Virus record (IMG/VR): IMGVR_UViG_2778261687_000001
Span: 1 to 19,860 of that record
Length of the DNA: 19,860 nt
Source of the DNA: a virus
Taxonomy: Duplodnaviria; Heunggongvirae; Uroviricota; Caudoviricetes
Direction: 5' to 3' (one strand)
Shown here: piece after piece, positions 2,860 through 7,252 of the stretch
Numbering within the stretch: position 1 is the stretch's first letter
How the letters are laid out: every line of letters begins with the position of its first letter
Translations under genes and position numbers: made by a program
The notes under the pieces: generated by a model
Database searches by the model: none
Told to the model about the DNA's origin: nothing
The model's input: only the letters and a program-made list of their open reading frames with translations

Positions 2860-3141
2860 TTATCTGGGAAACTGACGTCTGGCGTGTACGATACTTACAA
2901 TTTCAATACTTGAAGCGGCCACACGGTAAAGAATTATATAATTAGGGTGGGCCACAATCTCACGCAAGCCAGGCACTCTGTCGCTTGGTGGATATAAATA
3001 CGGATGCTCAGATAACGGCAGTACGCAAGCTCTTAAGCGCTTCCACAAACGTTCTGCCGCATCTATGTCGAAACGTGCAATATAACTAGTTATATCATCT
3101 AGGTCGGCATCTGCGCTTTCAAGCCATAACACGGGTAACAT
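2860..3141 (-). CDS. RelE/ParE-family type II toxin, 93 aa
   Basis: Track ORF MLPVLWLESADADLDDITSYIARFDIDAAERLW...HARRQFPR; typical size and residue pattern of the ParE/RelE superfamily; lies 3 bp downstream of a small antitoxin-sized gene. Confidence 0.65.
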   Translation of the reverse strand: MLPVLWLESADADLDDITSYIARFDIDAAERLWKRLRACVLPLSEHPYLYPPSDRVPGLREIVAHPNYIILYRVAASSIEIVSIVHARRQFPR

Positions 3142-3144
3142 TTA

Positions 3145-3333
3145 CTACTTGCTCCGTTCCTTGCGTATTTTAGCAAAGCGTTCTGCCATTCTGCGCTCAA
3201 CCTCGTCATGGGGAATTGCTGGGCGCGGATCTGCAAGGCTTGCTGCTACTTTCGCACGCAGCCATTCGTTGTAACTGTTTTCTTGTTCAATGGTTTCAAA
3301 CTCAGAAACCATTGGTGAAAGGGCTGTATTCAT
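3145..3333 (-). CDS. Putative type II antitoxin, 62 aa
   Basis: Internal ATG at 3333-3331 with GAGGT 7 nt upstream; small charged protein (MNTALSPMVSEFETIEQENSYNEWLRAKVAASLADPRPAIPHDEVERRMAERFAKIRKERSK) immediately upstream of the ParE-like toxin and immediately downstream of the repressor gene. Confidence 0.5.
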   Translation of the reverse strand: MNTALSPMVSEFETIEQENSYNEWLRAKVAASLADPRPAIPHDEVERRMAERFAKIRKERSK

Positions 3334-3362
3334 TACATACCTCATCTTATGGATGATATAGA

Positions 3363-3770
3363 TTATGCTCGATGCCCTTTCTGGGCTGCGAGCCACCGTG
3401 CGACAGTGCGATCCATTGACTCTTTTTTGTCTTTCATATCTTTTAACATTTGTTCTTGATCTTCCTCTGGAAATGCTCCGAAAGTTTGAAGCAATTCTCT
3501 TTGTCTGGGACCTATTTTCATTGTATCAGGCACTACGACTTGCTCTTCTTCGCTTGGCGGTAACATAAACCAATACGGAGGAAAGCCCGTCACTTCGGAA
3601 AGCTTATCGAGATTAGCCGTTGATGGGCTTGTGATGCCATGAACCCACTTTTGGACCGATTGTTGGGCAACACCAATCCTGCGGGCTAGTTCTGCCTGCT
3701 TAAGTCCTGTTTTTTCCAGCACCAATTTTATTCGGTACGTGGTTATTTCAAGGGTAGTCATTCGCTTCAT
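3363..3770 (-). CDS. Prophage repressor, DicA/RacR-like HTH-XRE, 135 aa
   Basis: N-terminal HTH (LKQAELARRIGVAQQSVQKWVHG) and a C-terminal region resembling DicA as I recall it (RELLQTFGAFPEEDQEQ...); divergent from the Cro-like gene across operator repeats. Confidence 0.8.
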   Translation of the reverse strand: MKRMTTLEITTYRIKLVLEKTGLKQAELARRIGVAQQSVQKWVHGITSPSTANLDKLSEVTGFPPYWFMLPPSEEEQVVVPDTMKIGPRQRELLQTFGAFPEEDQEQMLKDMKDKKESMDRTVARWLAAQKGHRA

Positions 3771-5613: not shown

Positions 5614-6360
5614 ATGAAAAATATTGCTGCAGGTGGTGTTCTTGAACGCATCCGTAAGCTGGCCCCGCAGCATGTAACCGCACCGTACCGGACAGTGGAC
5701 GAGTGGAGAGAGTGGCAGCTTGCAGAAGGGCGAAAGCGTAGTGAGGAAATTAACCGCCAGAATCGCCAGATCCGGGTGGAGAAAATTATGAAGCGTTCCG
5801 GTATCCAACTGTTGCACCAGAAGTGTTCGTTTGCGAATTACCTGGTGAAGAACGATGGCCAACGCCACGCGCTGAGCCAGGCAAAATCCATCGCGGAAGA
5901 AATGATGACCGGATGCACAAATTTCGTGTTCAGCGGTAAGCCGGGTACCGGAAAGAATCATCTGGCAGCAGCCATTGGCAACCATCTTCTGGCGAAAGGT
6001 CGCAGCGTGATTGTGGTGACGGTGGCGGATGTGATGCTGGCGTTACACGGCAACTACGACAACAAAAACTCGGGCGAAAAGTTTTTACAGGGGTTGTGTG
6101 AAGTTGACCTGCTTGTCCTGGATGAAATTGGTATGCAGCGGGATACGCGTAACGAACAGGTCACACTGAACCAGATAGTCGATCGCAGAACGGCCTCGAT
6201 GCACAGCGTCGGGATGCTGACGAACCTGAACCATACGGCAATGAATACGCTGCTTGGTGAGCGCGTGATGGACCGCATGACCATGAACGGTGGTCGCTGG
6301 GTGAATTTTAACTGGGAGAGCTGGCGTTCAAATGTCAGTCATTTAAGGGTTGTGAAGTAA
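5614..6360 (+). CDS. DnaC-like helicase loader (IstB-type AAA+ ATPase; lambda P functional analogue)
   Basis: Walker A GKPGTGKNHLAAAIG and Walker B DLLVLDEIG; immediately follows the initiator gene. Confidence 0.85.
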   Translation: MKNIAAGGVLERIRKLAPQHVTAPYRTVDEWREWQLAEGRKRSEEINRQNRQIRVEKIMKRSGIQLLHQKCSFANYLVKNDGQRHALSQAKSIAEEMMTGCTNFVFSGKPGTGKNHLAAAIGNHLLAKGRSVIVVTVADVMLALHGNYDNKNSGEKFLQGLCEVDLLVLDEIGMQRDTRNEQVTLNQIVDRRTASMHSVGMLTNLNHTAMNTLLGERVMDRMTMNGGRWVNFNWESWRSNVSHLRVVK

Positions 6361-6374
6361 TTTCAGGAGGACTC

Positions 6375-6767
6375 ATGGCAAGCGTTTTTACACCTGAACA
6401 GCGGGAAGAACTGAAGGCACGAATTATCGGGCTGGTACACAGGAACAAACGCATGACGATGTCGCAACTGGAGAGTGCAACGGGGGCTGGCTGGCATACG
6501 GTCAGACGTTGTCTTGTGGATGTGGTTGCTTGTGGTGATTTGTACATATCCGGTAAATACGGTGTTTTTGTATCAGAACAGGCGTATCAGGCGTGGTGTA
6601 AAACTCCGAAGAAAGCTGACCCGGCACTGGTCCGGAAGTTACCTGATGGTGAAATCCGTCGCTACGACAGAGACATGAACATAATTTGCCGGGAATGCCG
6701 TAACAGCGAATCAATGCAACGTGTACTGGCGTTCTATCGGGGTAATTTTCAGGAGGTGATGGAGTGA
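6375..6767 (+). CDS. Hypothetical nin-region protein, 130 aa
   Basis: Track ORF with AGGAGG Shine-Dalgarno; no family recognised. Confidence 0.6.
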   Translation: MASVFTPEQREELKARIIGLVHRNKRMTMSQLESATGAGWHTVRRCLVDVVACGDLYISGKYGVFVSEQAYQAWCKTPKKADPALVRKLPDGEIRRYDRDMNIICRECRNSESMQRVLAFYRGNFQEVME

Positions 6768-7060
6768 GGGTGAGGGTTTATATCGCCGGTCCGATGACCG
6801 GGTATAAAAATTTCAACCGTGAGGCGTTCCACAAGGCAGAAGAGGAACTGAAACGGGAGGGGCATACAGTCTTAAATCCGGCAGTACTTCCGGACGGACT
6901 GACTCAGTTGCAGTACATGGATATCTGCATGGCGATGATACGTTGCGTGGATGCGATTTACATGCTGAATGGCTGGCAGCGGTCGGCGGGTGCCAGGGCA
7001 GAACTGGCACTGGCGGAGAAGCTGGGGCATGCGGTTATTTTACAGAAGGCGATGCAGTGA
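6764..7060 (+). CDS. DUF4406-like (nucleoside 2-deoxyribosyltransferase-like fold) protein, 98 aa
   Basis: Translation VRVYIAGPMTGYKNFNREAF...VLNP...YMLNGWQRSAGARAELALA fits the DUF4406 pattern as I know it; GTG start with GGAGG upstream. Confidence 0.6.
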   Translation: MRVRVYIAGPMTGYKNFNREAFHKAEEELKREGHTVLNPAVLPDGLTQLQYMDICMAMIRCVDAIYMLNGWQRSAGARAELALAEKLGHAVILQKAMQ

Positions 7061-7062
7061 AT

Positions 7063-7239
7063 ATGTTCTGGATAATCAAAATTGAGCTGTTTGTTATTGT
7101 ATTCCTGATCAGTGCATTTCTGGCAGCGGCTTTTATTATCTGGGAAAATCCTTTTCGACATATCAGTCCACTGTTTGCAATCAGGGTGTTAATAGCATCG
7201 GTTGTAGTGGTGTGGTTAATGTGTTTTGCATTATTTTAA
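7063..7239 (+). CDS. Small hydrophobic protein, 58 aa (two predicted TM helices)
   Basis: ATG at 7063 just after the upstream stop; strongly hydrophobic translation MFWIIKIELFVIVFLISAFLAAAFIIW...; weak Shine-Dalgarno. Confidence 0.35.
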   Translation: MFWIIKIELFVIVFLISAFLAAAFIIWENPFRHISPLFAIRVLIASVVVVWLMCFALF

Positions 7240-7252
7240 TGGAGTTAATGTT

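Follow-up and report, generated by a model that had tools for sequence, protein, structure and literature searches.

What does a very small protein resembling nucleoside deoxyribosyltransferases do among the early genes of a temperate phage? The question is raised by a DUF4406 gene at positions 6764-7060 (+) of IMG/VR record IMGVR_UViG_2778261687_000001, a stretch of 19,860 nt (hereafter the window) that corresponds to a Rac-like lambdoid prophage of E. coli. An original prediction from the sequence had placed here a DUF4406 gene of the nin region with a fold like that of the nucleoside 2′-deoxyribosyltransferases (NDTs), and had suggested that its product could act on nucleotides or modified bases or, more speculatively, on nucleotide-based immune signals. 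The reading that we tentatively prefer, from residue logic and by analogy with characterised enzymes, is that the protein may be a minimal (deoxy)nucleoside-5′-monophosphate N-glycosidase or phosphodeoxyribosyl-transferase, which would edit or sanitise the nucleotide pool during phage replication. The gene as such is already known: it is an ordinary, annotated member of a large phage family, and there is nothing new in it as a sequence feature.

The gene and its predicted fold

Is the open reading frame (ORF) a gene, and where does it start? In the ORF list of the window it is a frame of 98 codons, whose product matches PF14359 (DUF4406) at E=2e-37, scoring 127.9 bits where the gathering cut-off is 22. 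The match spans residues 4-92, corresponding to profile positions 2-90 of 91, so that the assignment to DUF4406 made in the original prediction is borne out over the full length. PHROG 355, named 'nucleoside 2-deoxyribosyltransferase', matches the same frame (E=1.7e-46). Because the ratio of nonsynonymous to synonymous substitution rates (dN/dS) has a median of 0.08, at a dS of 0.36, across 53 distinct alleles of the E. coli lineage, this is a real gene under strong purifying selection and not a chance frame. Rfam and tRNA scans found nothing overlapping it. The elements of the gene call are the following:

6751..6756, plus strand: Shine-Dalgarno-like AGGAGG, 7 nt before the GTG at 6764, read from the sequence
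6764..7060, plus strand: DUF4406 coding sequence, 98 codons plus stop, supported by the ORF list, PF14359, PHROG 355, dN/dS and the RefSeq label of near-identical copies

The GTG start shares bases with the TGA that ends the DUF977 frame upstream (GTGA, 6764-6767), an overlap which suggests that the two genes are translationally coupled. Started instead from another in-frame GTG, at 6770, the protein would have 96 amino acids, and most homologues start at the equivalent of this codon ('MK/R-V/I-Y-I-A-G-P'). Judged by these homologues, the 98-residue form may be two residues too long, which leaves the start uncertain by two codons.

The NDT-like fold was supported by structure prediction. An AlphaFold2 model built from a 75-sequence alignment reached a predicted local distance difference test score (pLDDT) of 94.4 and a predicted template modelling score (pTM) of 0.87. 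The modelled chain runs strand-helix-strand-helix-strand-helix-strand, with four strands in a parallel sheet, and has the three-layer alpha/beta Rossmann-like architecture of the NDT/DrHyd fold. It stops five residues past strand 4 and carries no C-terminal extension. At the top of both fold searches stood NDT-superfamily enzymes only; with Foldseek against the PDB these were the NDTs of T. brucei, C. thermalis and Leishmania, MilB, BcmB and human DNPH1, with template modelling (TM) scores of about 0.75 on the query. At the sequence level, neither the single protein nor a profile of its close homologues matched any PDB entry, and a diverse DUF4406 profile reached T. brucei NDT from sequence alone (E=7.7e-4).

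Which member of the superfamily does it resemble? PF05014 (Nuc_deoxyrib_tr), the family of the classical NDTs, gave 16.1 bits, under its gathering cut-off of 28.8, and the score for DUF1937 fell slightly under its own cut-off. DmtZ is a small phage enzyme of this fold whose substrate is a 2′-deoxynucleoside 5′-monophosphate (dNMP). No Pfam model covers DmtZ, and its authors built their own hidden Markov model (PMC12884076); DmtZ is therefore not a DUF4406 member, and DUF4406 is a separate family from it inside the NDT/DrHyd superfamily.

The putative active site

For the residue map, the DNPH1 sequence was checked against the PDB and the DUF4406 profile was then aligned to it with hhalign, while the third residue of the catalytic triad was placed by bridging from CtNDT through T. 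brucei NDT to DUF4406. Conservation was counted across 75 diverse members of the family. The alignment with DNPH1 pairs Tyr6 with Tyr24, Gly9 with Gly27, Met11 with Ile29, Ser74 with Ser98 and Glu80 with Glu104. In the bridging chain, Asp62 of CtNDT, fixed by comparing the PDB sequences of the D62N mutant and the wild type ('VAQA(D/N)LQD'), aligns to an Asn of T. brucei NDT, which in turn aligns to Cys55 of DUF4406. The same chain equates CtNDT Asp82 with Ser74 and Glu88 with Glu80, and Pro39 with the Pro of T. brucei 'LIPTDN'. The codons concerned are these:

6779..6781, plus strand: Tyr6, in the strand-1 motif 'VYIAGPMTG'; equivalent to DNPH1 Tyr24, CtNDT Tyr7 and DmtZ Tyr6; 66 of 75 members carry Tyr and 9 Phe
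6878..6880, plus strand: Pro39, in the 'VLNPAxLPDGL' loop after strand 2; Pro in 73/75
6926..6928, plus strand: Cys55, in helix 2, at the general-acid Asp position (CtNDT Asp62, DNPH1 Asp80; Asn in T. brucei NDT and DmtZ)
6983..6985, plus strand: Ser74, at the sixth position ahead of the nucleophile, corresponding to DNPH1 Ser98 and MilB Ser97; 75/75
7001..7003, plus strand: Glu80, in helix 3, the predicted nucleophile; equivalent to DNPH1 Glu104, CtNDT Glu88 and DmtZ Glu103; 74/75

What do these positions do in enzymes that have been studied? DNPH1 uses Tyr24, Asp80 and Glu104, and a covalent intermediate between deoxyribose-phosphate and Glu104 has been trapped crystallographically (PMC10603095). 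Its substrate's 5′-phosphate is held by Ser98 together with Ser128′ of the partner subunit, and Ile29 and Ile76 sandwich the base (PMC10603095, PMC10483697). The Tyr of strand 1 positions the nucleophile and disfavours ribo-substrates (PMC10603095, PMC12884076); in MilB, which retains the phosphate Ser, a Phe at this place allows ribose to be accepted (PMC10603095, PMC10483697). NDTs hold the 5′-OH with Asp or Asn, enzymes that bind a 5′-phosphate carry small uncharged residues instead, Asn may substitute for the triad Asp in active enzymes such as T. brucei NDT and DmtZ, and every known transferase has kept a Pro following strand 2 (PMC12884076).

Read against these precedents, the residues to be expected with an NDT-like fold are present in part. 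The Glu nucleophile, the Tyr and the [D/S]-x-G-x-x-x-E nucleophile motif (S74-A-G-A-R-A-E80) are conserved, as is Gly9 (75/75); the general-acid Asp and the C-terminal extension are not there. In the alignment, Ser74 puts a small uncharged residue in the 5′ pocket, which permits a 5′-phosphate, as in (d)NMP N-glycosidases, and Pro39 probably corresponds to DmtZ Pro57, the water-excluding position of transferase type. Since Ser74, Tyr6 and Pro39 fit the published criteria, DUF4406 resembles a dNMP enzyme with a transferase-like Pro, the combination found in DmtZ. At position 55 the 75 members carry Cys in 59 cases, Asp in 7, Gly in 4 and Thr in 3. Asp53 was considered as the catalytic Asp and rejected, being conserved in 41/75 members and not aligned to the Asp position. 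A Thr or Ser at position 12 (74/75) occupies the place of MilB Arg23 and DNPH1 Arg30, with a conserved Arg/Lys19 nearby in the sequence. Phe22 and Tyr51 are invariants specific to the family, and Asn18, Arg/Lys19 and Trp71 are nearly so.

Could the protein instead be a classical nucleoside 2′-deoxyribosyltransferase (EC 2.4.2.6), exchanging bases between deoxynucleosides for salvage? The PHROG label, the similar names of many phage homologues, the NDTs among the top Foldseek matches and the alignment of Pro39 with the transferase Pro would all accommodate this. The names are propagated by homology, however; the PF05014 score is sub-threshold, an invariant Ser74 stands where the 5′-OH-holding Asp should be, and the C-terminal residues by which the active sites of NDTs are completed do not occur. 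We thus regard classical base exchange as improbable.

Nor does the conservation pattern suit a non-catalytic nucleotide-binding or regulatory protein whose pocket serves for binding only. The minimal architecture with neither lid nor extension, the loss of the Asp and the existence of inactive sensor versions in the TIR-DrHyd-SLOG clade speak for such a protein, but Glu80 (74/75), Ser74 (75/75), Gly76 and Tyr/Phe6 are nearly invariant across a family of ~12,000 clusters, as expected of a catalytic site, and the low dN/dS argues in the same direction. This possibility appears to us quite improbable.

The idea that the protein acts on immune signals has to be weighed against the same residues. 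On this account it would cleave or sequester nicotinamide adenine dinucleotide (NAD+), nicotinamide mononucleotide (NMN), ADP-ribose-derived or other nucleotide signals as a phage counter-defence, which similarity to TIR, ThsB and SLOG proteins and the loss of the general acid would allow. Yet the sequence profiles of DUF4406 reach NDT, BlsM and BcmB, not TIR or SLOG, and the Tyr at position 6 is of the deoxyribose type, while NAD, NMN and ADP-ribose bear a 2′-OH. PADLOC gave no significant match, the best being HEC-01B at E=0.011 and 12.9 bits, no defence or anti-defence gene recurs beside DUF4406 and no neighbour family is conserved across its lineages, and Aravind's virus survey leaves the family out of the NAD/ADPr network. 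This part of the original prediction found no positive support, and we consider it unlikely. Of its other half, action on nucleotides or modified bases, the nucleotide part finds support in the residues and in DmtZ as a phage precedent (PMC12884076). What probability remains falls to substrates outside those considered here.

A minimal dNMP-cleaving or phosphodeoxyribosyl-transferring enzyme, the reading preferred above, would work as follows. The protein would be made from the early-right operon in lytic growth and would bind, most likely, a 2′-deoxynucleoside 5′-monophosphate, with Ser74 and backbone atoms of the Gly9-Gly13 loop holding the phosphate, Tyr6 selecting deoxyribose and Met11 and Tyr51 sandwiching the base. 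Nucleophilic attack of Glu80 on C1′ would then set the base free and produce a covalent deoxyribose-5-phosphate-enzyme intermediate, which could be resolved by water (hydrolase) or by another base (phosphodeoxyribosyl transfer). In consequence, the dNMP pool would be edited or sanitised while the phage replicates. Within this scheme, the class of substrate, the covalent chemistry, the parts played by Met11 and Tyr51, the time at which the gene is expressed and its function in the phage are all inferences.

Several points weigh against this proposal. With hhalign, DNPH1 is matched weakly (E=0.037), though in the register that the T. brucei alignment gives independently, and the residue map rests on alignments, not on an inspected superposition. 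The third residue of the triad is a Cys where NDTs have their general-acid Asp. In the NDT superfamily a C-terminal extension completes the partner's site in the dimer; DUF4406 has no counterpart of DNPH1 residues 128′-133′, with the second phosphate ligand Ser128′, or of the DmtZ lid residue Trp124, so its substrate binding must differ. The Glu55/His56 element of DNPH1 is absent as well. No dNTP pyrophosphohydrolase was detected in the window among the ORFs scanned with Pfam, a scan outside which some small ORFs fell. Domain fusions do not help: apparent fusions to MazG, dCMP deaminase or 'hydrolase' were rejected because all six cases are stand-alone DUF4406 proteins of 110-178 amino acids, none of 50 long family members has an informative extra Pfam domain, and DUF6378, the one verified fusion partner, was dropped as a functional clue since it has no fold placement and only dubious 'phosphofructokinase' labels. 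Finally, DUF4406 is mentioned by three papers in the searched literature, none of them functional, and no enzyme assay of a DUF4406 protein turned up there.

Genomic setting and neighbours

In which company does the gene travel? In the prophage, it follows the repressor, a cro/YdaS-like gene, YdaT, a replication initiator, a DnaC-like loader and the DUF977/Ren-like gene, and precedes a hydrophobic ORF, a PHROG-1372 protein, DUF4014, a DUF551 protein, DUF968/HNH, RusA and antiterminator Q. The landmarks are:

3363-3770, minus strand: repressor
5614-6360: DnaC-like loader
6375-6767: DUF977/Ren-like gene
7063-7239, plus strand: hydrophobic ORF of 58 amino acids with two strongly hydrophobic segments, starting 2 nt past the DUF4406 stop
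11431-12102: antiterminator Q

Lying in the early-right operon past the replication genes and ahead of Q, the gene occupies the equivalent of lambda's nin region, which confirms the location first proposed; none of lambda's own nin genes adjoins DUF4406, so 'nin' is to be read as a positional term. The early-right genes around it are co-directional, with starts and stops that overlap or abut. Promoter-like and terminator-like sites were not commoner in the region than in shuffled sequence, and independent, moron-like expression was rejected on this ground. The simplest reading is that DUF4406 is expressed from the early-right transcript in lytic growth.

The guanine-plus-cytosine (GC) content is ~0.50 in the replication genes and DUF4406 and 0.39-0.44 across the next small genes (window 7100-7850), namely the hydrophobic ORF, the PHROG-1372 protein and DUF4014. 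Because of this drop on its 3′ side, a mosaic junction immediately 3′ of DUF4406 is suggested.

Elsewhere in the prophage, two ORFs belong to the ParE/RelE toxin family (PF05016), at 2860-3141 (-), with E=5.6e-17, and at 9044-9343 (-), with E=4.3e-10. Small same-strand ORFs lie upstream of them (3145-3396 and 9349-9669) and could be the antitoxins; one of the two pairs directly adjoins the prophage repressor. A DNA N6/N4 methyltransferase (PF01555, E=4e-45) is encoded 3′ of antiterminator Q at 13592-14638 (+), and after it comes a tRNA-Gly(TCC) at 14856-14928 (+), the sole RNA family match in the window.

Does any of the neighbours accompany DUF4406 in other genomes? We assembled 248 related loci with locally called genes and distinguished 34 lineages among their DUF4406 proteins. 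In 186 related loci the next gene downstream on the same strand follows at a median gap of -4 nt. No neighbour cluster within two genes on either side is present in more than two of the 34 lineages, and for this reason DUF4406 is a gene with no obligate partner. The original prediction had pointed to small uncharacterised neighbours, one of them a probable membrane peptide. The 58-residue ORF, which matches no Pfam or PHROG family, agrees with that description, but as a partner it was rejected, since a single locus of the 248 has its homologue at +1.

Methyltransferases deserve separate mention. In a Pfam census of 111 distinct clusters of immediate neighbours, DNA methyltransferases are the commonest recognisable class (9/111, ~8%), comprising six C5 clusters, two N6/N4 and one MT-A70. 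Methyltransferase-like neighbours make up 4.5% of the dereplicated contexts at +/-1 versus 1.7% at other offsets, and by motif and Pfam they are confined to 4 of the 34 lineages. In Pseudomonas, enterobacterial and Gordonia phages the methyltransferase gene overlaps the start or stop of DUF4406, in a Brachyspira prophage the two are adjacent, and Gordonia phage Chop provides a further example. These arrangements were recorded at:

L084: 1509-3037
L086: 5001-5935
L251: 1501-2597
census A4

As an obligate partner the methyltransferase was rejected, given only 4/34 lineages, and it is kept as a lead. The link is a modest enrichment that may reflect shared residence in accessory early regions. Methyltransferase neighbours of three unrelated families (9/111), together with the prophage's own N6/N4 enzyme, led us to consider that DUF4406 might remove modified dNMPs, such as N6-methyl-dAMP (m6-dAMP) or 5-methyl-dCMP, from methylated DNA degraded during infection, either keeping them out of phage DNA or destroying them as danger signals, a counter-defence against sensors of modified nucleotides. 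DNPH1 offers an analogy, as it sanitises 5-hydroxymethyl-dUMP from epigenetically modified DNA. In bacteria, m6-dAMP is a danger signal that triggers a PUA-Calcineurin-HAD filament (bioRxiv 10.64898/2026.01.15.699771). We nevertheless rate this specialised role as very improbable.

Hints of a link to nucleotide metabolism are weak. In mycobacteriophage Ariel (L083: 2477-4476), the DUF4406 protein gp162 is clustered with a MazG-like protein (gp164) and a DUF5664 protein (gp166), and one neighbour cluster of the census is a dATP/dGTP pyrophosphohydrolase. Members of the MazG-like and DUF5664 families have been shown elsewhere to turn dATP and dGTP into dNMPs, and DUF5664 hydrolyses both in Arthrobacter phage Wayne. 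These arrangements hint faintly at a cascade from dNTP to dNMP to base.

The verified fusion, DUF4406 followed by a C-terminal DUF6378, occurs in two lineages:

L239: 4998-5657
L208: 2363-3256
L201: 17-625

Proteins made of DUF6378 alone are very common in actinophages, where primase and NrdH-like genes are their neighbours; they occur in 1,463 GenBank phage records, 1,321 of them from Mycobacterium phages. DUF6378 had no PDB match by sequence or profile and no hhalign link to a MazG-like protein.

Distribution, names and known relatives

How widespread is the family? Searched exhaustively with HMMER, 1.84 billion representatives yielded 12,006 clusters (50% identity) at E<=0.001, and the DUF4406 gene by itself was found in 1,077 of 5,426 complete E. 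coli genomes, none of which carries more than four copies. A tblastn search located homologues in 629 of 50,697 GenBank phage records, mostly from Arthrobacter, Vibrio, Gordonia, Mycobacterium and Pseudomonas phages. Near-identical copies in RefSeq are named 'DUF4406 domain-containing protein', and PHROGs places the family under nucleotide metabolism. Among GenBank phages, stand-alone homologues also bear the names 'deoxycytidylate deaminase', 'MazG-like pyrophosphatase' and 'hydrolase':

L082: 2477-2845
L083: 2477-2857
L084: 2501-3037
L249: 1501-1833
L250: 1504-1872
L251: 1501-1887

In those from Kepler, Ariel and LESphi3 Pfam finds no domain other than DUF4406, and the other three, of 110-128 amino acids, have no room for a second domain. 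The labels appear to be propagated errors.

With ~12,000 clusters and a presence in one E. coli genome in five, the family is large, and the residue map turns a 'DUF' into a specific hypothesis that can be tested cheaply. If the enzyme is indeed of the dNMP type, an activity described in DmtZ of Z-genome phages would be widespread in ordinary temperate phages, and the 'dCMP deaminase', 'MazG-like pyrophosphatase' and 'hydrolase' labels now spreading in phage genomes would be corrected.

How, then, does DUF4406 compare with the characterised members of the superfamily? The closest parallel is DmtZ, likewise a small phage enzyme of NDT fold with the strand-1 Tyr, the Glu nucleophile, a third triad residue other than Asp, a small uncharged residue in the 5′ pocket and the transferase-type Pro after strand 2. 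DmtZ differs in its ~145 residues, its five-stranded sheet, the Trp124 lid contributed by the partner subunit and Asn77 in place of Cys55. It is also linked to PurZ0/DutZ and 2-aminoadenine genomes, unlike DUF4406 here: no adenylosuccinate synthetase, dUTPase or MazG was found among the window ORFs scanned with Pfam, some small ORFs falling outside the scan, so the linkage typical of Z genomes (PurZ/PurZ0 with DutZ/DatZ/MazZ) is not seen. The 2′-deoxynucleoside 5′-phosphate N-hydrolase DNPH1/Rcl (PDB 4P5E, 8QHR, 2KHZ) is related in sequence at the profile level only and has Asp80, the helical Glu55/His56 element, a shielding loop and the C-terminal extension with Ser128′, all four of which DUF4406 lacks.

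The CMP N-glycosidases MilB and BcmB (PDB 4JEM, 4OHR, 4JEN) have ~160 residues and come from antibiotic biosynthesis clusters, unlike DUF4406; Phe17 of MilB favours ribose, whereas DUF4406 mostly carries Tyr, and the phosphate ligand Arg23 of MilB is replaced by Thr/Ser12. DUF1937, represented by the structural-genomics protein APC5043 (PDB 1T1J), forms a Pfam family of its own and goes unmentioned in the searched literature. The classical NDTs of L. leichmannii, C. thermalis and T. brucei (PF05014) share the fold, the 'YIAGP' motif of strand 1, the Pro after strand 2 and the xGxxxE motif; they are 50-60 residues longer and carry Asp at the 5′-OH position in place of Ser74, and Asp (Asn in T. 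brucei) in place of Cys55. DUF4406 therefore departs from every characterised member in two respects, with a Cys for Asp or Asn and a chain that ends after strand 4 with neither lid nor extension.

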